Positions 3,864 through 61,748 of a DNA stretch of 64,000 bases are shown piece after piece. Within the stretch, counting starts at the first letter, position 1. The number at the start of each line of letters is the position of its first letter. The notes beneath the pieces were generated by a model that was not told the origin of the DNA, made no database searches, and was given only the letters and a program-made list of their open reading frames with translations. The stretch spans positions 3,680,001 to 3,744,000 of the forward strand of contig JASGJH010000001.1 in the NCBI GenBank assembly GCA_047601445.1, read 5' to 3'. The DNA is from Myxococcales bacterium (GTDB lineage: Bacteria; Myxococcota_A; Polyangia; Polyangiales; DASUME01). Made by a program: the position numbers and the translations under genes.

Positions 3864-5096
3864 ACCACCGCACGCTTCTCCTCCTGGCTCTGCTCGGTTG
3901 CGGCGACGGCGCGAGTGACGGCGCCGACGACGGCGAGCTCCGTATCGGCCTGCTCTTGCCCTACACCGGCAGAGACGGCTCGGCGGGCACCAACTTCGAA
4001 CGCGGCGTACTGATGGCCGTGGACAACGTCAACGCGGGCGGAGGGCTCTTCGGCAAGCAGGTCAGAGATCGTCTTCGCGGACACCCACTCCAGCGTCGAA
4101 CTTGGGTTGGACGGCGTGCACGGGCTGATCGACAAGGGGGTGATCGCCGTGATCGGCCCTGAGGGAGACGAGCTCGCCAAGAGCCTGCCTCCCATCTTGG
4201 AGCCCCTCGGCATTCCGCTGATCACACCGAGTTCATCATCGGCGCCGGTAGAGGTCTCGGCTGAGACCAGCCTGTGGTTTCGGCTCGCGCCCTCGGCCGA
4301 AGACCTGGGCACGGCCATGGGCCGCTACCTGCGCACCGAGGGCGTGACGGACATCGCCATCGTGAGCACCGACACCGAGTACGACACGAGCTTCTCTGCA
4401 GCGGTCGCGGCGCGGCTCGAGGAGGCAGACATCGCCATCGCGATCTCCGAGAACATCCTGCCCAGCGCGGCCGACTTCACCGATGTGGTACACCGCGTGG
4501 TCGACGCTGCACCCAAGGCCATCGTGCTGGCAGCGGACGCCAGCACGGGCAGCCGCTTCGTCAACGACTACGACTTCGTGTTGGGTTCCACCGACGGCGT
4601 TAAGTGGTACCTCTCGCCCCAGCTCGAGCAGCCTGGCTTCTTGCTCAACACCTCGCCGGAAGACGTCGAGGGGATGATCGGCGTGGCCGCGGCGGTGAGC
4701 CCGGTGAAAGCGCGCACGGACGCCTTCACGAAGGCCTTCGAGGAACGCTGGGACGGGGCTGCGCCCACCACGGGCGCTTTCTACTACTACGACGCGTTGG
4801 CGCTGTTCGCGGTCGCCTTCGAGGGCGCGGCCACCAAAGTGGGCAATGCGCACCCGGATCCAGAGACCCTGCGCAGCTATATGCTGTCTTCCTCCGGGCA
4901 GTCGGGGCTGGTCGTGGAGTGGGACGAGTTGCCCAAGGGGCTCGAGAATGCGAGCAAAGGTGAAGCGGTGTACTACACGGGCGTGACCGGGGTCCTGTCA
5001 CTCGATGAAGCTGGAGCTCGCTCGGCGGTGTACACGCGGCTGTGGACCATCGAAGGGGGACAAGTGGTGCCGCTCCCCGAGGCGCAGGCGGAGTAG
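3860..5096 (+). pseudogene. Branched-chain-amino-acid-type (LivJ/K-like) solute-binding lipoprotein interrupted by a +1 frameshift near 4064
   Basis: GTG start overlaps the upstream TGA; LLGC lipobox; IGLLLPYTG...VNAGGGLFGKQV. Removing one A near 4064 restores EIVFADT and joins ORF 4107-5096. Could be a sequencing error. Confidence 0.8.
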
Positions 5097-5112
5097 CGTT
5101 CTCTGTCCTGGA

Positions 5113-6399
5113 CTAGTCCACCAGCGTACGCAGACGGAAGGCCAGGCGCGCGCTCGCCGACATGCGATGCCAGCGCTCGAGGCGCTCCGTGTAGTAGTCG
5201 AGTGTGAGCCTGGCCACGGCCCGCGGGGAGTAGTCGTTCTGCATGGCGCGCGCCCCCTCGGCGCCCATGCGTTGCGCGTGCTGAGGATCGCGCAACAGCC
5301 TGAGGCAAGCCTCGGCCAGATCCGCTTCGCTCTCACTCTGGAAGAGCACGCCGTTGCGCCCTTCTTGCACGATCTCCGGGATGCCTCCGGTACGAGAGGC
5401 GACCAGGGGACAGCCGTAGGCGAGCGCCTCGAGCACTGCGAGCGGATGGTTCTCGTAGCGGGAGGCCACCACGGTCACGAACGAGCGCCGACGCAACTCC
5501 GCGATCTCCGAGAGCGGGCGCGAGCCAAGCCAGCGTGCTCGCGCGCGCAGCTCCCCGGGTAGCTCGCCGTCGAGGTAGCGCTCGGGAGCGAGCAGCTCAC
5601 CGCGCACCGGAATGCCCTCTCCGGGCCCCACCAGCAACAGCTCCAGCTCCGGCAGCTCCGCACCCAGCCGACGAAACGCCTTCACCACCAGGTCGGCGCC
5701 CTTGCGAAGATCGAAGCGCCCGACGCACAGCAAGGTCTTCTTGTCACACGCCTGGTAGCTCCAGCGCTCACGGGCCTCCACGCTCGGCCCCGGGTTGGGG
5801 ATCACGGCAGCATGCGGCAGCTCGACCTGATAGCGCGCACGCACGCGCTCCAGCTGATCGCGCGCCGGAGAGGTGATCGCGAGCGCCGCACGAAAGGCCT
5901 GGCCCTCGGCCCACACCCGCCGCGCGAAGGCGGCGTCTTGCACCACGTTGTCCGAGGGGCCGGCGAGGAACCACGGGCCGTGCAGGCGCACCACGATGGG
6001 AATGTCGAGGAAAGGCTGCGCCCAAAACGGAGTTCCGAATGACTCCTCCATCTCGATCAGCTCGGGCCGTGAGGTGCCGGGGAGCCGCTGAAGCGCGTGG
6101 AGCACGCGCAGCGCGTGCTGGTGACCAGTCAGGCTCCATGGGCTCACTCGGCGCACCGTGCGCAGCAGCGCCGCGGGGACTGCCTGGATATTCGCGTCGC
6201 ACAAGGGCACCACGTCGGGTGTGTTCTGTGGGGCGTCGGGCGGCACCCAGGCGAGCACCAGGGAGGACACCCCCTCCTGCTGCAACCCCTGCCGCATGTT
6301 CGCGACATACGTGACGATGCCATTGGCCAAGCAGTCGGGGGGCCAGGCTGGACTCACGAAGGCCACGTGGCGTGGACGCCGGAGCGTGCGGTTACGCAT
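5113..6399 (-). CDS. Glycosyltransferase family 4
   Basis: GIVTY, VGRFDLRKGAD, SRYENHPLAVLEALAYGCPLVASRTGGIPE. Confidence 0.92.
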   Translation of the reverse strand: MRNRTLRRPRHVAFVSPAWPPDCLANGIVTYVANMRQGLQQEGVSSLVLAWVPPDAPQNTPDVVPLCDANIQAVPAALLRTVRRVSPWSLTGHQHALRVLHALQRLPGTSRPELIEMEESFGTPFWAQPFLDIPIVVRLHGPWFLAGPSDNVVQDAAFARRVWAEGQAFRAALAITSPARDQLERVRARYQVELPHAAVIPNPGPSVEARERWSYQACDKKTLLCVGRFDLRKGADLVVKAFRRLGAELPELELLLVGPGEGIPVRGELLAPERYLDGELPGELRARARWLGSRPLSEIAELRRRSFVTVVASRYENHPLAVLEALAYGCPLVASRTGGIPEIVQEGRNGVLFQSESEADLAEACLRLLRDPQHAQRMGAEGARAMQNDYSPRAVARLTLDYYTERLERWHRMSASARLAFRLRTLVD

Positions 6400-12690: not shown

Positions 12691-14381
12691 CAGCCCTCCC
12701 CTTCCCAGCCACGGTGGAGACCGAGCGCGATGGCGGTGGCGTGCTTGAGTAGCGACACGTTGTCCCCGTGCAGCGCGAGCCGACGCGCCACGAACTCCTG
12801 CCCACGCGGCGTATCCGCCAACGAGCCGAGTGATTTGACGGCAGTCGAAGGCCACTGGTCCGCGAACTCGGTGCGCAAAGCCCAGGCGGCCTCGGCTTCG
12901 ACACCGACCATCCCGTCGAGCGCCTCCTTCACGTCGGCGGCCACCGCGCGTCGCATCTGCCAGGCCTCCGGGACATCGAGCCGACGCAGGGACTCCATCA
13001 CGGTCTTGGGCGCGTACCGCAGGTAACTCGCGCGTAGCTCGAAGCTGCGCGCGGAGCTCAAATGGGCCAGCGAACCAACGCAAGCCAGGGGAGCCGCCGC
13101 GCGCGTGCTCTCGCGCAGCGCCCAGGCCCGTTCATCGGAGAGCCCTTGCACGCTCTTGGCCGCCGCACGCGCCAACCCGTAGTGCGTCCGCAGATCCTTG
13201 CGGTGCTGCGCCAAGAGGGAGTCGCGCAGCCGCCACGAGCGCTCACAGGCGAGACCGCTCAAGGAGAAGAGCACCGCCTCGGCGTGCTCCTCCCGCGCGC
13301 GCTCGCGCAGCGCCCAGGCGAGTTCCGAGTCCCGCTGGGCGAGTCCTTTGAGCACCTCGCCGGGAGCGCGCTCGAACAGCGCGGCCTGCAGGGCCTGCCC
13401 CTGCGGGTGGAGCGCGGCCGGGCCCGTGAGACCGCGGGCCACCTGCGCCGGATGAAGCAGCGCGAGCTCTTCGCGCAGCTGCCAGCTCAGCGGATTGGTC
13501 AAGCCAGCGAGTCCAGCCAAGACCACCTGCGGAGCGTGACGCGCGAGGGCCAGACGCAGATCGTCCACCGTCCCGCCAAACAGACCTGCCAGCATGTACG
13601 CCGCCACCTGCGGCTCGCGCTCGGCGCGCAGCTGGATCCAGTGCAAGAAGGCGTCGCGTGCCTGCTCCGGCGAAGACAGCGGTGGGGCCGCTCTCGGCTG
13701 TGTGCGACGAGCCTGCGCCTCACGCAACGCCGTGCTTGCGCCCAGGCGAGCCCCCGCGTCGATCAAGGTCGTAACCTCGACGACCACCTCCTCCAGGGGC
13801 GCGTCGTTGTGCACCGTGAACCAGCGCTCCGGGGACTCCGCTGCCAGCTCGCGATAACCTGCCCGCAGGCGCTGCGAGAGGCCCACGCCCGAGAGTCCCT
13901 TGCGCGACGGCGTGCGGCCGCCTTTGCTGACGAGCTTCGAGCTCTTGCGCCGGGCCCGCGCCAGGCTGGGGTCGAGATCGACCAACACGACGAGTTCGGG
14001 CGCCAGGCCCGCCGCGGCGGCGTTCACGACGGGCGTCACGTAGTCCGGCGGCAGATGCCGCCCGAAGCGGGCCAACACCTCCGCGGTGTAGAGAAAGCGA
14101 TCCGCGATCACGATGTCATGGTCCTCGAGCGCCGGGAGCAGCGACTCCTCCATGAGTTGCACGTCGCGAGCCACGTAAAGCAAGAACTCTGCGCGCGGAT
14201 CGAGGGCGAGGTTCTGGCTATCGCGCGAGAGCTCGCGGATGGACTCCGACACGGTCGACGCGAATCTACCCTCGGCCCGCAAGTGCTTCACGCGGTAGCC
14301 CTGGGCCTTGAGCCGCTCGACCACACGATTGGAGATGGTGGTCTTGCCGCAGCCGTCGATGCCCTCGAAGACCACGAACAT
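12690..14381 (-). CDS. tmk: Thymidylate-kinase-like protein with a long C-terminal helical-repeat extension
   Basis: FVVFEGIDGCGKTT P-loop, ADRFLYT; then about nine ~27-aa repeats (L.GL....AW.LRE). May be a non-housekeeping paralog. Confidence 0.75.
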   Translation of the reverse strand: MFVVFEGIDGCGKTTISNRVVERLKAQGYRVKHLRAEGRFASTVSESIRELSRDSQNLALDPRAEFLLYVARDVQLMEESLLPALEDHDIVIADRFLYTAEVLARFGRHLPPDYVTPVVNAAAAGLAPELVVLVDLDPSLARARRKSSKLVSKGGRTPSRKGLSGVGLSQRLRAGYRELAAESPERWFTVHNDAPLEEVVVEVTTLIDAGARLGASTALREAQARRTQPRAAPPLSSPEQARDAFLHWIQLRAEREPQVAAYMLAGLFGGTVDDLRLALARHAPQVVLAGLAGLTNPLSWQLREELALLHPAQVARGLTGPAALHPQGQALQAALFERAPGEVLKGLAQRDSELAWALRERAREEHAEAVLFSLSGLACERSWRLRDSLLAQHRKDLRTHYGLARAAAKSVQGLSDERAWALRESTRAAAPLACVGSLAHLSSARSFELRASYLRYAPKTVMESLRRLDVPEAWQMRRAVAADVKEALDGMVGVEAEAAWALRTEFADQWPSTAVKSLGSLADTPRGQEFVARRLALHGDNVSLLKHATAIALGLHRGWEGEG

Positions 14382-28322: not shown

Positions 28323-29291
28323 ATGGCAGGCAGTCTCGCGGACCGGCTTCATGGGCACCTCTACACCGTAGGGCCGCGCCTCATGGGGCGCATTTCTCCC
28401 CAGCCCGAGCCGCCGCACCGCGTGTGGAAACGGCGCGTGGTGGAGGCCGGGCGGGACGTCACGCTGTCGGGGCTCCTGAGCGAACCCGAGGCGCGAAGCG
28501 CGCGCTCGAACACACTGGCCATCGTGCTTCATGGTTGTGGCGGAAAACCGTCGAGTCACTACACCACGCAGCTCGCCTATCACCTCTATCAAGCCGGTCA
28601 CACGGTGCTGCGCCTGGCCTGGCGCGGCTCCGACCTGGAGGGCGAGGACTTCTATCACGCGGGCCAAACCGCCGACCTGCACGCAGTGCTCGAGGATCCC
28701 GCGCTCGCTCATCATCAGCAGGTGTGGGCCATCGGTTTCTCACTCGGTGGCCACGCATGCCTGCACTTCGCGCACGAGTCCACCGACGCGCGCCTGGTGA
28801 AGGTGGCCGCCATCTGCCCGGTGCTGAACCTGATCCAGACGAATCACTTCATCGACAGCTCGCAAGCGGCTCTCTATCGAATCTACACGCTGCGAGGCCT
28901 GCGTGAGGGCTACGCCAAGGCCGCCGCCCGCGGACGCACGCCGACCGATCTCGCGGCGGTGTCGCGTGCCAACACCTTCCGTGCCTACGACGCGCTCACG
29001 GTGGTGCCTCGCTACGGTTTCACGTCGGTGGACGACTACTACACGCGCAGCTGCGTCTCCCGCATCGTCGATCGCATCACGCGACCCACGCTCATCCTCT
29101 CGGCGCGCCACGATCCCATGCTGCCCTGGCAGATCGCGGACGGCATGCGCGCGCGCTTCTCCTCGGCGATCACCTTCCGTTGGGCCGAGCGCGGCGGCCA
29201 CTGCGCCTTTCCGAGCGACGTGGATCTGGGCCTCGACCAGGGCGGCAGCGGCTTCGAAGACCAGCTCCACCGCTGGCTACTCGGCGAGTGA
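28323..29291 (+). CDS. YheT-like alpha/beta hydrolase
   Basis: LHG..G, YHAG.T.DL, GFSLGG, YGF.SVDDYY, DP, GGHCAF. Confidence 0.88.
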   Translation: MAGSLADRLHGHLYTVGPRLMGRISPQPEPPHRVWKRRVVEAGRDVTLSGLLSEPEARSARSNTLAIVLHGCGGKPSSHYTTQLAYHLYQAGHTVLRLAWRGSDLEGEDFYHAGQTADLHAVLEDPALAHHQQVWAIGFSLGGHACLHFAHESTDARLVKVAAICPVLNLIQTNHFIDSSQAALYRIYTLRGLREGYAKAAARGRTPTDLAAVSRANTFRAYDALTVVPRYGFTSVDDYYTRSCVSRIVDRITRPTLILSARHDPMLPWQIADGMRARFSSAITFRWAERGGHCAFPSDVDLGLDQGGSGFEDQLHRWLLGE

Positions 29292-30434
29292 GACCTCGTC
29301 GACCCTGCGCAGATAGCGCGTGGCGGGGTTCTCCCGACGCCAGATCACCGTGTCCATGAAGTAGTGGTGGATGTTCACGAAGGCGTAGAACGTGGCGAAA
29401 TAGGGAGTCGGCCCCAGCGCCGCGCGCGTGTTCGCGCTGGGCAGGTTGCCGTCCATCGCCTGCGGTCCCCCACGAAACAAGAGCCAGCCCAGTGCGACCG
29501 CTGACACCGCGAGCCAGCCCAGGCGCACGGAGACAGGCTTCTCGAACCAGGGCGGGCCTTCCCTTTCCTGGGCCTCGGCGCGCTTGAGCAACCACACCAT
29601 GTACAAGTACTGCAGCGAGTGCAGCGCAGGGATCGCATAGCGCACGAGGGGATCGAGGCTCGAATACACCGACCACAACCAGATGCTCGAGAGGTACGCC
29701 AGGAGCGGCGTGAGCGGGGGCAGCTGCCTCTGGCGGCGCCAGCGCGCGACGAGGGTCCAGCACAGCACCGCGAAGGTCGCCAGGAAGATCAGCTGGGTGA
29801 CACGTTCGAGCCCGACGGGGTGCGCGAAGGTCACGTAGGGAACCCCCTTCTCTTCCAGGCTGCGTCCCGGGTCCGCCGGGCTCGCCCAGGCGTAAGCCCA
29901 GCCCGCATAGGCATGCGCGAGCAAGCTGGTGCGCTCTGCCGAACCGAAGAAGAACGAGCGCCGCGCCGCGAGCACGGTCAGCACGCCGAAGCCTTGCTTG
30001 ACGTAGTGCCAGCCCACCAGCAGGAACATCAACTGGATCAAGAGCCCCAGGCTCCACACCGAGGGCGCGAGCAAGGCGTAAAGCCCCCATGCCGCGAGCA
30101 CGAGCGGCACCAGCAGTCCCACGACCAGATAGCGGACCCGCTGGGCCCCGACGAACTCGGGCCCCATGCTGCGCGCACGAATCCCGCGGTAGAACAGGAG
30201 ATAGGTCACCGCGAAATGCGGGTCGTTGATCACGTGGGCGGCCCAAAACATGGTGAACCCCACCATGAGTTCGGCCTCGTCGAGCCCGAAGGCACCCCGC
30301 AGCGCGTAGGAGAGCCCGAACAGGAACGGCGTGGCTCCCCCCACCAGCAGGAACTCCACCAGGTTCGCGGACCAGGGTCGTCTCTCCCGGGCCGCGAGTC
30401 CGGCATCCTCCAGGGTGGCCGACAGGCTCGTCAT
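29277..30434 (-). CDS. Uncharacterised polytopic membrane protein with conserved-looking His motifs (putative metalloenzyme)
   Basis: About 8-9 TM; NDPHF..TY, WHYVKQGFG, HSLQY, NIHHYFMD..IWR; co-oriented downstream of the peptide trio. Confidence 0.75.
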   Translation of the reverse strand: MTSLSATLEDAGLAARERRPWSANLVEFLLVGGATPFLFGLSYALRGAFGLDEAELMVGFTMFWAAHVINDPHFAVTYLLFYRGIRARSMGPEFVGAQRVRYLVVGLLVPLVLAAWGLYALLAPSVWSLGLLIQLMFLLVGWHYVKQGFGVLTVLAARRSFFFGSAERTSLLAHAYAGWAYAWASPADPGRSLEEKGVPYVTFAHPVGLERVTQLIFLATFAVLCWTLVARWRRQRQLPPLTPLLAYLSSIWLWSVYSSLDPLVRYAIPALHSLQYLYMVWLLKRAEAQEREGPPWFEKPVSVRLGWLAVSAVALGWLLFRGGPQAMDGNLPSANTRAALGPTPYFATFYAFVNIHHYFMDTVIWRRENPATRYLRRVDEVSLAE

Positions 30435-30559
30435 CGCCGAGCATGCTGCCTGAAGTCGGGCGGGCTTGCCAGCGTGAGCCGCCGGCCTCCAAATGGCCGA
30501 GCTCGCACGTGGCCTGGCTGTGACCAGGACCACGTACGAGCTCGTGAACCCAAGAGAGA

Positions 30560-30576
30560 TGCGGTCAGAGACCGCA
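30560..30576 (-). terminator. Stem-loop downstream of the third peptide gene (terminator, attenuator or stabiliser)
   Basis: tgcggtc/gaccgca stem followed by a pyrimidine run (tctctctt) on the minus strand. Confidence 0.45.
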
Positions 30577-30591
30577 CCGCTCATCGGCTTC

Positions 30592-30780
30592 TCAGCCAAC
30601 CTCGTTGAGCACGTTGCCGATGTAGCTCAGCACGTCGCCCACGTGGGTGTTGGCAGCGATGAAGCTGGCAACGTTGATGTTGTTGCAGTTGACCGAGCCG
30701 TTGCCGATGTCGGCAAGGCCACCGGCCACGGACTCAAGAGCAGACTCTTCGACGGACACGAACTGGATGGCGTTCTTCAT
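30592..30780 (-). CDS. Double-glycine-leader secreted peptide C (62 aa)
   Basis: MKNAIQFVSVEESALESVAGG|LADIGNGSVNCNNINV...; AGGAG RBS after an A-rich stretch; paralog of the two upstream genes. Confidence 0.88.
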   Translation of the reverse strand: MKNAIQFVSVEESALESVAGGLADIGNGSVNCNNINVASFIAANTHVGDVLSYIGNVLNEVG

Positions 30781-30891
30781 GGTGATTTCTCCTGATGCTT
30801 TTTAATGTCTTTGGGTTGTTTGCTTGATTTCAGTGACTTGATTCAGTGCAGTACTCAGAAACCTGGAACGACCTATTGGGTCGTCCGGAGC

Positions 30892-31116
30892 TCAGCAGAG
30901 CGGGCCTTCGCCGCCCACGGGGCAGCAGCTGCTCACGTCGTTGAGGATGTTCAGGATGTAGCTGCCGACGTCGCCCACCGAGGTGTTGGCGCTGAGGAAG
31001 CTAGCCACGTTGATGTTGTTGTGGTTCACCGAGCCGTTGCCGATGTCGGCAAGGCCGCCGGCCACGGACTCCAGCGCAGACTCTTCGACGGACACGAACT
31101 GGATGGCGTTCTTCAT
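30892..31116 (-). CDS. Double-glycine-leader secreted peptide B (74 aa)
   Basis: Leader identical to peptide C; core LADIGNGSVNHNNINV...SSCCPVGGEGPLC; AGGAG RBS. Confidence 0.88.
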   Translation of the reverse strand: MKNAIQFVSVEESALESVAGGLADIGNGSVNHNNINVASFLSANTSVGDVGSYILNILNDVSSCCPVGGEGPLC

Positions 31117-31186
31117 GATGATCTCTCCTGTGCGTTCTTTGATTCGAGCGTTGGTTATCGAGCGTTGAACTGCGGAAAACTTGGGC

Positions 31187-31417
31187 TCAGTCGGTGGGCT
31201 GAGCAGAGGAGCCGCAACCGCCGCCACAGCCGTGGACCTGATTGAGCACGTTGAGCAGCACGCTGGCGACGTCGCCGAGACCGGTGTTGATGGTCACGTT
31301 GCTGAGCACGTTGATGTTGTTGCCGTTGAGCGAGCCGTTGAGGACGTCGGCGAGGCCGCCGGACACGCTCTCGAGGGCCTGCTCATCGACGGACACGAAC
31401 TGGATCTGCGTGGTCAT
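31187..31417 (-). CDS. Double-glycine-leader secreted peptide A (76 aa)
   Basis: MTTQIQFVSVDEQALESVSGG|LADVLNGSLNGNNINV...HGCGGGCGSSAQPTD; AGGAG RBS. Confidence 0.88.
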   Translation of the reverse strand: MTTQIQFVSVDEQALESVSGGLADVLNGSLNGNNINVLSNVTINTGLGDVASVLLNVLNQVHGCGGGCGSSAQPTD

Positions 31418-31518
31418 GGTGATTGCTCCTGGTTGCTTGGGTGTTGGTTCTCGTGTGCGAGCTCGAGTCAGCCGGACCGCGAATCTGCTCGTCGTCCTCA
31501 GCGTCTCGTGACCAGGTG

Positions 31519-31538
31519 CTTGAGCAGGAGTCGTGCCG
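31519..31538 (-). promoter_or_regulatory. Sigma-54 (-24/-12) type promoter for the peptide trio
   Basis: CGGCACG-ACTC-CTGCT(CAAG), GG-N10-GC spacing, about 100 nt upstream of the ATG; 18/20 identical to 61425-61444. Confidence 0.75.
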
Positions 31539-32043
31539 GGTCGCACACGAGGGCACGGCTTCGCACGCAGGCGAGCGACGAGTTCGATCGCATCGCGCGC
31601 ACGTCAGCGCACGGTTCGGCACGGGTTCGCGCACTTGCACCGCGGCGGCGTTCCCAACTGCGTGCAGGCGGTTCGAGCGTTCGCCGGGCGCCGGGTCCGC
31701 GCGCGCACTTGCAGGGGGCCGCCGTTTGATGAAGCAGCTCACAGCCGGCGGCCCGTGAGGTCAAGGCGGTTGGCGGCGGAGCCGCTAGCCATGGCGACTA
31801 GCGAGGTGGCCGCCACTCGAGCCCAGGCCCCGAAGCCTCCCTCTAAACGCCGATCAAGTGAGGCACTTTGGCCTTGTTCAACGGGAGGCACGCGCCACTC
31901 CCGCCCGTCGCGGCGAAGCCGCGCCCCGGACCCACCCTCCGCGGGGTTCGTTGCGCTCACGAAATCCGTTGAGGTCTGGGCACCTTCGGCCCGGGTCTTC
32001 GACGAGAACTTGTCAGGGGTGCCATCCCCGCTCACTCTCGTGA

Positions 32044-34059
32044 TTGGTGCCCGATCGGATCCTTCGCTTTTGTGCCGTGCTCGTCGCTCTTTCGGCTGCC
32101 TGTGGTGGCCCCCAGGCCGCTCCGAGCGGCCCGCAGCCCACGACCCGCAACCCGTCCCAGCCCGCCCCCACGCAAGCCGTGAGCCCCGGGGCGCAAGCCC
32201 CCTTGGCGGCGCGCCCGGACCTGCCGCCCGGCGAGCGCGCGCTGCTGATCGAGAATGGCGAGGAGCGCTGGGTCGACGCCAAGGCCGCCGAAGCCGCCGG
32301 CTACACGCTGGTGGACCTGAGTGACAACTGGACCCCGCTGATCTTCCGCGAAGAGCGCTCGGACACCGGGGAGCCACTGCCGAACCGCTACCGTCGCGTG
32401 TTCCTGGGCCTGGCCAACGATGAGCTCGACGGCGACGGCGTCCCGCTCGAGCCGGGCCGCAAGAACTACCTGGAACTCTACGGCATCTTCCCGTCGCTCT
32501 CGGTGCTGCGGGCGCGCTTCCTCGGCAGCGTCGACAGCACCTGCCACGATCAGGAGAGCGTCGACGTGCTGTCGGCGGTGGAGACCGTTTCCTACGTTGC
32601 TCCCAAGAACATCGAGAAGGAGGCGCGCAAGCTGGCCCGCGTGCAGGCCGAGCTCGACGCGGCGCTCAAGCGGGAGAAGCTCGCCAGCCTGGCGGAGCTC
32701 GCGCAGGCGGCCCCCCAACTCGTCCCCAAGATCGAGCTCGTCGAGAAGCGCGCTGCCGAGAAGCTCGCCATGGCCGCGGTGGAGCGCCGCCTCACCTGCG
32801 AAGGGCTCTTGAGTCCCACGAGCAAGCACAAGACCGGCATCTACGACGAGCCGATGCGGATCGCGGTGCGGCAGTTCCAGCAGAAGAACATGATCTACGA
32901 GGCCAACTTCCTGCGGCGTCAGACCGTGGACGCGCTGGCCCGACCTCCGCTCGACAATGACTACGACAGCCTGGTGCGCAGCATCCGCGAACGCGTGATC
33001 TCGGCCGCTGGCATCATCGAGGACGGCACGGGTGGCACGCCGAAGAACCCGGCGCTCGACCTCGCTGGCGAGTACACCAAGTTGACACTCGAGCAACTGG
33101 GCCTGAGCGACGCCCAAACCACGGTGGCCTTCTACAAGCGCCACGAGCCGCCCGAGTTCGAGACCTTGCGCGCGGCCATCAAGCTGCCAGCGCGGCCCGA
33201 GTACTACTCGGATCACATGGAGCTCTCCATCGTGGTCGACCGCGGGGACGTCTGGTACGACCTCCCGTTCGACGCCGCCGGCAATTTCAAGCTGCCCGTC
33301 CGCAAGCGCTACCCGTCGCTCTCGCTGATGATGACCTACGGAGGCAAGACCTTCCCGCTCGCGCGCTGGCGCAGCACCATCGGTGGTTGGCGCGCGGAGC
33401 AGGCCAGCGATGGCTACGAATACTTCCGCTACAAGATGTCCGACGTGGGCCCGCGTGTGATCCGCCAGGTCGTCTCGGGTCCGGTCTGGATCGCCCCGGC
33501 GTCCACCCCCATCCGCACCCTGGTGAAGAACAAGACGGTGAACCACGCCATGACCAAGGTGGTGAACTACGACGAGCTCGGGCCAGGCTTCCTGTCGGCG
33601 TACGGCGTGGTGGCCGGTTACTTCGTGACGCCCGGGCTCAACGGCCGCCCCGACTTCGACAACGGCGTGCGCGCCCACGGCTCGTCGGATTACCTCTCCA
33701 TCTACAGCCCGAACGGCTTCTCGCACGGCTGCCACCGGTTGCCCAACCACATCGCGGTCCGCCTCTACTCGTTCATCCTGGGGCATCGCAAGCGCGTGGT
33801 CGCGGGCGACCAACCGCTCGGTTTCTCGCGCCAATTCCTGTCGGGCGAGACCGTCTACGAGATGCGCATTCCCTCGCGCGGCTACGCCTACTACCTCGAC
33901 CCGCCGCTCCCCGTGGAGGTGCTCGAAGGGACCATCAAGGGCGACCAGAAAAAGCCGATCATCGGCTACATCCCCAAGCCCAACGAACGCTACCCGGGCC
34001 CGCCGCCCCCTGCCCCGGATAGTCCCGAAGCCAAGGCCGGCGGAGGCGGTGAAGAATGA
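32044..34059 (+). CDS. L,D-transpeptidase (YkuD) family lipoprotein with a peptidoglycan-binding domain
   Basis: AAC lipobox; GIYD..MR.AVRQFQ PG-binding motif; P.W..P; RAHGS...SHGCHRL catalytic motif. Confidence 0.85.
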   Translation: MVPDRILRFCAVLVALSAACGGPQAAPSGPQPTTRNPSQPAPTQAVSPGAQAPLAARPDLPPGERALLIENGEERWVDAKAAEAAGYTLVDLSDNWTPLIFREERSDTGEPLPNRYRRVFLGLANDELDGDGVPLEPGRKNYLELYGIFPSLSVLRARFLGSVDSTCHDQESVDVLSAVETVSYVAPKNIEKEARKLARVQAELDAALKREKLASLAELAQAAPQLVPKIELVEKRAAEKLAMAAVERRLTCEGLLSPTSKHKTGIYDEPMRIAVRQFQQKNMIYEANFLRRQTVDALARPPLDNDYDSLVRSIRERVISAAGIIEDGTGGTPKNPALDLAGEYTKLTLEQLGLSDAQTTVAFYKRHEPPEFETLRAAIKLPARPEYYSDHMELSIVVDRGDVWYDLPFDAAGNFKLPVRKRYPSLSLMMTYGGKTFPLARWRSTIGGWRAEQASDGYEYFRYKMSDVGPRVIRQVVSGPVWIAPASTPIRTLVKNKTVNHAMTKVVNYDELGPGFLSAYGVVAGYFVTPGLNGRPDFDNGVRAHGSSDYLSIYSPNGFSHGCHRLPNHIAVRLYSFILGHRKRVVAGDQPLGFSRQFLSGETVYEMRIPSRGYAYYLDPPLPVEVLEGTIKGDQKKPIIGYIPKPNERYPGPPPPAPDSPEAKAGGGGEE

Positions 34060-61424: not shown

Positions 61425-61444
61425 CGGCACGGCTTCTGCTCAAG
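61425..61444 (+). promoter_or_regulatory. Sigma-54 (-24/-12) type promoter for peptide D
   Basis: CGGCACG-GCTT-CTGCT(CAAG), 85 nt upstream of the ATG. Confidence 0.75.
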
Positions 61445-61529: not shown

Positions 61530-61748
61530 ATGCAGAAGCAAGATCAATTCGAGTCCGTTTCAGAGCACGCGCTGGATGCAGTCGCGGGCGGTCTACTGGG
61601 CAGCCTACTGGGCACCCTGACGGGCAGCCTCGGCGGCCTGGGCGGTCTGGGCGGCCTCGATAACGTGGGCGGGCTCGGCGGCCTGGACAGTGGCTTGGGC
61701 GGCGACCTCGTCGGCCAGCTGCTCGGCGCGTTCCCGCTGCCGCTCTGA
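61530..61748 (+). CDS. Double-glycine-leader secreted peptide D (72 aa, Gly/Leu-rich core)
   Basis: MQKQDQFESVSEHALDAVAGG|LLGSLLGTLTGSLGGLGGLGGL...; AGGGGG RBS; leader aligns ungapped with peptides A-C. Confidence 0.85.
   Translation: MQKQDQFESVSEHALDAVAGGLLGSLLGTLTGSLGGLGGLGGLDNVGGLGGLDSGLGGDLVGQLLGAFPLPL

Follow-up and report, generated by a model that had tools for sequence, protein, structure and literature searches.

What do three small, adjacent genes on the minus strand of a Myxococcales bacterium encode, and what are their products for? The genes lie in a stretch of 64,000 nucleotides (the window; Table 1). A sequence-only reading had described them as a tandem trio of Asn-rich peptides with double-glycine (GG) leaders, and had proposed that they are either co-secreted subunits of an extracellular fibre or matrix, or precursors of an unclassified RiPP. 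GG-leader peptides are usually classed as bacteriocins, and the EbfG peptides are the precedent for a matrix amyloid. The Asn-rich family is a second, unrelated test case for GG-leader matrix peptides, in a different phylum. If its members polymerise, myxobacteria would gain a matrix protein with a new fold; if they kill, they would amount to an immunity-free cocktail of peptides from what is probably a predator. The general weight of either outcome is limited because the family is narrow in range, having been found in one genus among the genomes searched.

Table 1. Features of the window, with positions counted from its first nucleotide.
Feature	Position	Strand	Description
Membrane protein gene	29277..30434	-	385 aa; His motifs HF, HY, HSLQY, HHYFMD; context, outside the system
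Hairpin	30544..30590	-	Directly 3' of gene C; -30.5 kcal/mol over 71 nt, without shuffle control
Peptide gene C	30592..30780	-	62 aa: leader, core, single Gly
Peptide gene B	30892..31116	-	74 aa: leader, core, Cys-rich tail
Peptide gene A	31187..31417	-	76 aa: 21-aa GG leader, 40-aa core, Gly/Cys tail
Sigma-54-type -24/-12 motif (GG-N10-GC)	31519..31538	-	120 nt upstream of gene A
Palindromic element, core GCCATGGC	31786..31798	-	258 nt upstream of the -24 GG
Divergent 671-aa gene	32044..34059	+	Weak PG_binding_1 match; context, outside the system
Fourth GG-leader gene	61530..61748	+	72 aa; 51-residue Gly/Leu-rich core; sigma-54 motif at 61425-61440

The basic layout was read correctly. The three minus-strand genes are neighbours, an AGGAG lies 7-8 nt 5' of every ATG, and behind the 21-aa GG leaders the 40-aa cores align without gaps (24/40 identities for A/B and for A/C, 32/40 for B/C). 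The tails are as described, and the three cores contain no Lys, Arg or Trp. The predicted mature peptides have 55 aa (gene A; 5.4 kDa, pI ~4.2), 53 aa (gene B; 5.3 kDa) and 41 aa (gene C; 4.2 kDa), with GRAVY values of 0.29-0.46 and a pI of ~4.1 across the trio. GC3 is 0.84-0.92, and the whole genome has 66% GC. The outer edge of the cluster needs correcting: position 31538, taken as a gene edge, is the base at which a sigma-54-type promoter motif starts. The hairpin 3' of gene C is a possible transcript end or stabiliser; it is absent from the calls of the terminator scan, and the scan for sigma-70 promoters and terminators returned no sites.

The trio are confirmed as real genes and not chance open reading frames, because a whole-genome tblastn found five further paralogs (C1:8,271,921-8,273,363, ~4.56 Mb away) at E-values of 1e-13 to 1e-21 and a profile search of the databases found 59 homologous proteins at E ≤ 4e-18. 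Beyond the eight family genes, the best remaining match in the genome has E > 1. A wider profile gave 61 proteins, so that about 60 are known in all, every one of them short (57-103 aa), and the profile search left the range from E 4e-18 to E 10 empty. When proteins of 73-2000 aa were searched with a profile of the core alone, nine matched, all family members, among the best 7,999 candidates scored. An exhaustive search of 1.84 billion representatives gave six matches, namely five family members and one spurious repeat protein. P0061 (1289 aa) was considered as a member and rejected; it is an unrelated tandem-repeat protein whose score was summed from weak repeats. Judged by its sequence, the trio belongs as a satellite to an eight-gene family whose five-gene main array lies elsewhere, and this larger, apparently co-regulated family goes beyond what had been claimed.

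The family is patchily distributed. It was found in 1/301 genomes of the phylum (its own) and in 2/10 of the taxonomic family. Full-length members were found in 2/401 genomes of the order, both of the same genus, with the best 15 candidates per genome scored; the other two matches among the 401 are leader-only or weak. A scan of genome collections added two loci labelled as uncultured Polyangiales bacterium. Within the genus, the family was not found in eight of nine relatives, and therefore it does not appear to be a core structural need, although these assemblies are fragmented and 72-99% complete. Alignment A3 has 58 sequences (8 from this genome and 50 others); it does not include four homologs that are extended at the N-terminus or the two identified afterwards, and core statistics use 57 of the 58.

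Export by a C39 transporter, as first proposed, is supported. On the same strand and directly downstream of the main array are two HlyD_3 genes and then a gene for a Peptidase_C39/ABC_membrane/ABC_tran protein (PCAT; C1:8.275 Mb). The QxxxxDCG and H...D catalytic motifs of this protein, with the catalytic Cys, His and Asp, are intact. The sequence-only reading had suggested looking for a locus of this kind elsewhere in the genome, and it is there, beside the five paralogs. Candidates for a TolC-type channel are plentiful (40 OEP domain matches), so the genome holds a C39 transporter, membrane-fusion proteins (MFPs) and outer channels, with the cassette adjoining the five paralogs and not the trio. 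A 16-bp hairpin marks the boundary between the main array and the exporter genes, which fits the expectation if far more peptide than transporter is made. The same peptide-HlyD-HlyD-PCAT order occurs in the genus relative G308, with five peptides, and in the metagenome loci L027 and L029. GG leaders have 15-30 aa with hydrophobic residues at about -4, -7 and -12, and the family leaders have this form. We regard it as likely that the family is exported unmodified by the linked PCAT. At C1:4.867-4.872 Mb there is a second HlyD-HlyD-PCAT cassette, which comes with a different GG peptide of its own, and the trio would be exported by the main-locus PCAT rather than by this one, judged only from the likeness of leader and promoter.

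The second cassette itself (G000:C1:4867145-4872079; L004 9145-14079; also L048, L049 and L071) carries a single GG peptide of 63-65 aa, the core of which alternates hydrophobic and small residues and has a Lys/Phe-rich end. Cassettes of this kind with similar peptides also occur in G304 and in G305 (two in G305), and have a wider spread in the genus than the Asn-rich family.

The flanks of the arrays bear on the RiPP proposal. We did not find a conserved modifying-enzyme or immunity gene beside the arrays in the flanks of this genome, of G308 or of the satellites. Modification in trans by an unlinked enzyme, e.g., of the invariant Asn or Ser side chains or of the Cys tails, could draw on Asn6, 12, 35 and 38 and Ser18 and 31 of the core, on an unlinked YcaO gene ~190 kb from the main array, and on the orphan GG peptides elsewhere in the genome. 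Against this, no enzyme stands beside the main array in either genome or beside any satellite, the core is conserved and not hypervariable, no Cys is invariant (8/58 cores are Cys-free), and the genome has no LanC-like (PF05147) match, in a search in which the control was likewise blank. A conserved Cys/Ser-Thr ring pattern was not found in the family. The RiPP reading has thus weakened, and we hold modification in trans to be very improbable.

The immediate neighbours of the trio can be set aside for similar reasons. The 385-aa membrane protein had no match in Pfam or NCBIfam, and we take it to resemble a membrane metalloenzyme. It was tried as a tailoring or immunity gene and rejected. It is context only, because it is conserved at 58-70% in five of nine genus relatives (one a fragment), where it occurs without the peptides, yet was not found in the peptide-bearing G308. 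The divergent 671-aa gene has an L,D-transpeptidase-like motif. In G305 the starts of these two genes are ~156 bp apart with no peptides between them, and here and in L025 they are ~1.6 kb apart, which means that the array was either gained at this site or lost from G305. At the orthologous site L025 has a satellite of four peptides. A DNA tree of 23 genes nests window genes B and C with gene 4 of the main array (support 88-93) and pairs the main-array genes by position with those of L027 and L029 (99, 85 and 65); deeper nodes are weak. In L024 (G308:C132) two single-gene satellites lie 8.5 kb apart (4990-5211 and 13455-13679) with near-identical promoter regions. These two sit among unrelated neighbours, as if the family spreads as gene-plus-promoter units.

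The arrays share their upstream DNA. We called sites sigma-54-type against the -24/-12 consensus GG-N10-GC. The site over the trio has >20 nt identical to the one over the main array, and such a motif occurs in 8/8 aligned upstream regions, 90-120 nt before the first gene. The extended motif GGCACG-N4-CTGCTCAA occurs three times in the 9.5 Mb genome, each time upstream of GG-peptide genes (the trio, the main array and the fourth GG-leader gene of the window). Further upstream, a palindrome with core GCCATGGC was found in 7/7 family loci that have upstream DNA, 216-272 nt beyond the sigma-54-type motif, although these loci share descent and are not independent observations. The palindrome is kept beside differing upstream genes and was found in 0/3 other GG-peptide loci. 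Genome-wide, 2/63 sigma-54-like sites have it, both at family loci, against a chance rate of ~0.005 per 70-nt window. A looser palindrome-plus-promoter pattern applied across the genus matched mostly by chance. The sigma-54-type motif would be the promoter and the palindrome an enhancer, i.e., a candidate activator-binding site, and the genome encodes RpoN and 49 sigma-54 activators. An MrpC site (TGTYN8RAC, as given in PMC4320627) was considered for the palindrome and rejected; the pattern fits in only one of seven loci, and what is conserved is its N8 spacer. Between palindrome and promoter, a 12-nt word occurs twice, ~74 nt apart (31627-31712, minus strand), and is partly kept in L025.

The fourth GG-leader gene has the same leader type as the trio, an unrelated core and no palindrome. 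It had no match in Pfam or NCBIfam, and its neighbours are a mannosyltransferase-like gene on one side and a Cys-rich gene on the other. Its product is likely to be another substrate of the same exporter.

Dedicated sigma-54-type control is one reason to ask whether the peptides are signals, i.e., kin-recognition peptides or ComC-like pheromones in a developmental or density circuit. Leader-level ComC matches in 32/58 members and a hybrid histidine kinase after the PCAT in G308 point the same way. The kinase, however, is not at that place in this genome. Pheromones are usually short and single-copy, whereas the family peptides have 41-58 aa, occur in 7-8 copies and keep a fixed, packed scaffold. 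A signalling role is thus improbable in our view.

Core length is fixed (57/58 align without gaps), and Asn6, Asn12, Ser18, Gly27, Ser31, Asn35 and Asn38 are invariant across 57 cores. Asn makes up 18% of these cores (1.8% in the background), and Pro, Lys and Arg together 1.1% (16% in the background). The net charge is mostly -2 to -4, and the cores on average lack a transmembrane-grade segment. The majority fraction is 0.72 in the core and 0.88 in the leader, and pooled dN/dS over 29 genes, a rough and GC3-biased estimate, is 0.63 in the core and 0.13 in the leader. The ~60 natural variants already map which core positions are fixed, free or compensating.

An alternation of Asn with hydrophobic residues had been read into the whole core. 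It holds for residues 19-27, where hydrophobic periodicity is two-residue (p=0.004-0.014), but residues 27-40 have a helical, 100-degree periodicity (p=0.001) and residues 1-11 are borderline helical (p=0.054). Side-chain volumes compensate at positions 30/34/37 (SD of the sum 47, vs. 75 when shuffled), where three Leu occur together in only 1/57 cores, and also between positions 17 and 19. The effect persists in 34 non-redundant cores, with the qualification that the position groups were picked after seeing the data and that kinship is still present in the statistics. These patterns suggest that the core packs as one unit, its middle forming a strand and its end a helix. AlphaFold2 gave a low-confidence, mostly helical monomer (pLDDT 54 at full length, 65 for the core) that supports only the last helix (pLDDT 81, residues 31-40). 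With the low-confidence core model, Foldseek found no match and a VIA fold search returned generic helices (best Z 4.7). Sequence searches of the PDB gave only matches with E ≥ 0.017 (GCN4 fusions and glucanotransferases). The ESM Atlas offers leads only, in the form of unnamed clusters at 0.90-0.92 when the whole peptide is compared and at no more than 0.81 for the core. An internal repeat in the core was considered and dropped (the best lag, 25, has p=0.003 by itself but 0.29 over all lags), as was a likeness to gas-vesicle protein layout, which had no match in Pfam or the PDB.

Composition makes the proposed fibre or amyloid plausible. A simple all-beta amyloid does not agree with the helical periodicity of residues 27-40. 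Aggregation hot spots cover 15.4 residues in the cores vs. 18.2 in shuffled cores. Among background windows, 14% score at least as high as the average core. The strict EbfG hotspot A[FI]NI[GS] is in 0/57 cores, and a relaxed version, xNI[GSA], in 29/57. A plain cross-beta arrangement is not established, because the last third of the core evolves as a packed amphipathic helix and the middle as a strand. A reading of the Cys tails as essential cross-linkers is weak, since 24/58 peptides have nothing after residue 41, 8/58 cores lack Cys altogether and every Cys column varies.

The closest known system is EbfG1-4/PteB of Synechococcus elongatus PCC 7942, where, as described in PMC4997328, PMC12267927 and PMC9981879, the small EbfG genes are co-transcribed and sit immediately before those for a C39 PCAT and HlyD. 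EbfG1-3, encoded there as tandem GG peptides beside the exporter, form amyloid in C-DAG, according to PMC9981879 and PMC4997328. The same layout of tandem GG peptides directly before C39 PCAT and HlyD is found in the main arrays of this genome and of G308 and in L029. Both systems lack a linked tailoring enzyme and have Asn/Ile-rich stretches. The likeness is one of layout and composition. The Asn-rich family differs in its myxobacterial host, two MFP genes, satellite arrays and sigma-54 control, and in one fixed 40-aa scaffold across eight paralogs without the strict hotspot.

Our preferred reading, to which we assign a probability of about 45%, is that the family consists of unmodified, PCAT-exported, self-assembling surface or matrix peptides that would work like EbfG-PteB; kinship with that system is not claimed. 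We favour it because many redundant genes share one scaffold with strong ribosome-binding sites and a hairpin layout, because the arrays have no immunity or enzyme genes, and because EbfG is a precedent (as described in PMC4997328, PMC12267927 and PMC9981879). A single sigma-54 enhancer-binding activator at the palindrome would switch on both arrays together. The PCAT at C1:8.275 Mb would cut the leader after GG and, with the two membrane-fusion proteins and a TolC-type channel, would export unmodified acidic peptides of 4-5.5 kDa starting with L[AL]D. Made in bulk from many near-redundant genes, the peptides may then co-assemble extracellularly, as a surface layer or a fibre of the matrix, through the invariant Asn/Ser/Gly positions and the fixed-volume hydrophobic face. 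The optional Cys/Gly/His tails might decorate or cross-link a minority of the subunits.

The main rival to the matrix reading is an unmodified antibacterial cocktail against prey or competitors, comparable to the class IIa microcins or to the Bacteroides peptides that have no immunity protein, using the same PCAT, with the C-terminal amphipathic helix acting on membranes. The class IIa microcins (MccV type; MccE492 is an amyloid-forming class IIb microcin) likewise have a GG leader, PCAT-MFP-TolC export and a hydrophobic, anionic, unmodified core with optional disulfides (PMC10233263). We retain this reading because, as described in PMC10233263 and PMC12219008, microcins can be anionic and hydrophobic and GG bacteriocins without immunity genes exist. 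With a GG leader, a PCAT and an MFP, the family is laid out as class II microcins are. Microcins are hydrophobic, most of them with a net charge that is zero or negative, several may share one exporter, and GG-leader bacteriocins without an immunity protein are known (all as given in PMC10233263). Leader-level PF10439 matches in 32/58 members, the amphipathic helix at core residues 27-40, and the patchy distribution with variable core positions agree with such a role, and the difference in dN/dS between core and leader would also suit diversifying toxins or signals. On the other hand, the verified microcin immunity genes in PMC12219008 are small membrane proteins encoded immediately adjacent. 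The family has no adjacent immunity gene: five of seven spacers have no ORF of at least 25 aa and the other two only ORFs of 27-37 aa with non-ATG starts, the array neighbours vary between genomes, and the gene for the 385-aa membrane protein occurs independently of the peptide genes. The family also differs from these microcins in being Asn-rich rather than Gly-rich, in its mature mass of 4.2-5.4 kDa (at or below their 5-10 kDa range), and in its many near-identical paralogs, eight on one fixed scaffold, where microcins are diverse in sequence. We thus consider an antibacterial role possible but rather unlikely.

Named families were compared with the peptides as well. No family in Pfam or NCBIfam reaches its cut-off, and the core profile found nothing outside the Asn-rich family, so the core does not belong to a named family, as the sequence-only reading had suspected. 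The nearest was the CTB family bacteriocin (NF038167; PF28158), which shares the tandem array of GG-leader paralogs. Tandem CTB arrays, which can be inferred from locus tags in PMC9846622, are there exemplified by cyanobacteria. The CTB HMM (72 positions) matches 34/58 members weakly, all under the cut-off and centred on the leader. The best score is 27.4 bits over residues 1-37 (cut-off 32), and the trio scores 14.2-17.2 bits. The match ends by residue 37 in ten members listed individually and by residues 37-53 in the trio. One homolog has a precomputed PF28158 label, and a genome-wide CTB search gave no match. Membership was rejected on the sub-threshold scores, and a tblastn of P0057 against plasmids had no match.

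Streptomyces rodlins (NF041022) are also small, secreted, amyloid-forming surface proteins. Core and rodlins have short motif resemblances. The amyloid-forming RdlB peptide described in PMC5314377 has a QGSFN stretch, similar to NGSLN in the core. Rodlins, in contrast, have ~130 aa and no GG leader. NF041022 matches 0/58 members, and rodlin homology was rejected, with no HMM or profile support. A rodlin search of the genome gave only an unrelated site (E 0.585), and the positive-control genomes were also silent.

The export system is thus of a known kind, and the Asn-rich peptide family itself has no match in the libraries or literature searched. In the open literature we found nothing on it, although genome-mining supplements could list the genes. 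Paired membrane-fusion genes and satellite arrays, apparently under one private sigma-54 element, are its two variant traits. A bolder form of the matrix reading, which we hold only tentatively and think doubtful, is a dedicated myxobacterial extracellular polymer. Its interchangeable 40-residue subunits would have a new helix-strand-helix (or helix-to-beta switching) fold and be exported by the PCAT and two MFPs, with Cys-tailed cross-linking satellites and a private sigma-54 regulon. A comparable functional amyloid from myxobacteria was not found in the literature searched.

Three further loci were noted in the genome. An orphan GG-leader gene (G000:C1:3943749-3943958; L003 8749-8958) encodes a 48-residue core with seven Cys, has a GC3 of 0.70, and had neither a sigma-54 motif nor a family match. 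From C1:6066326 onward on the plus strand, a 60-aa ORF, which we take to look like a lasso-peptide precursor, follows a sigma-54-like site and precedes a 304-aa gene. From C1:516874 onward, also on the plus strand, a probable lipoprotein of 329 aa, which contains many tandem repeats of six residues, lies behind another sigma-54-like site.
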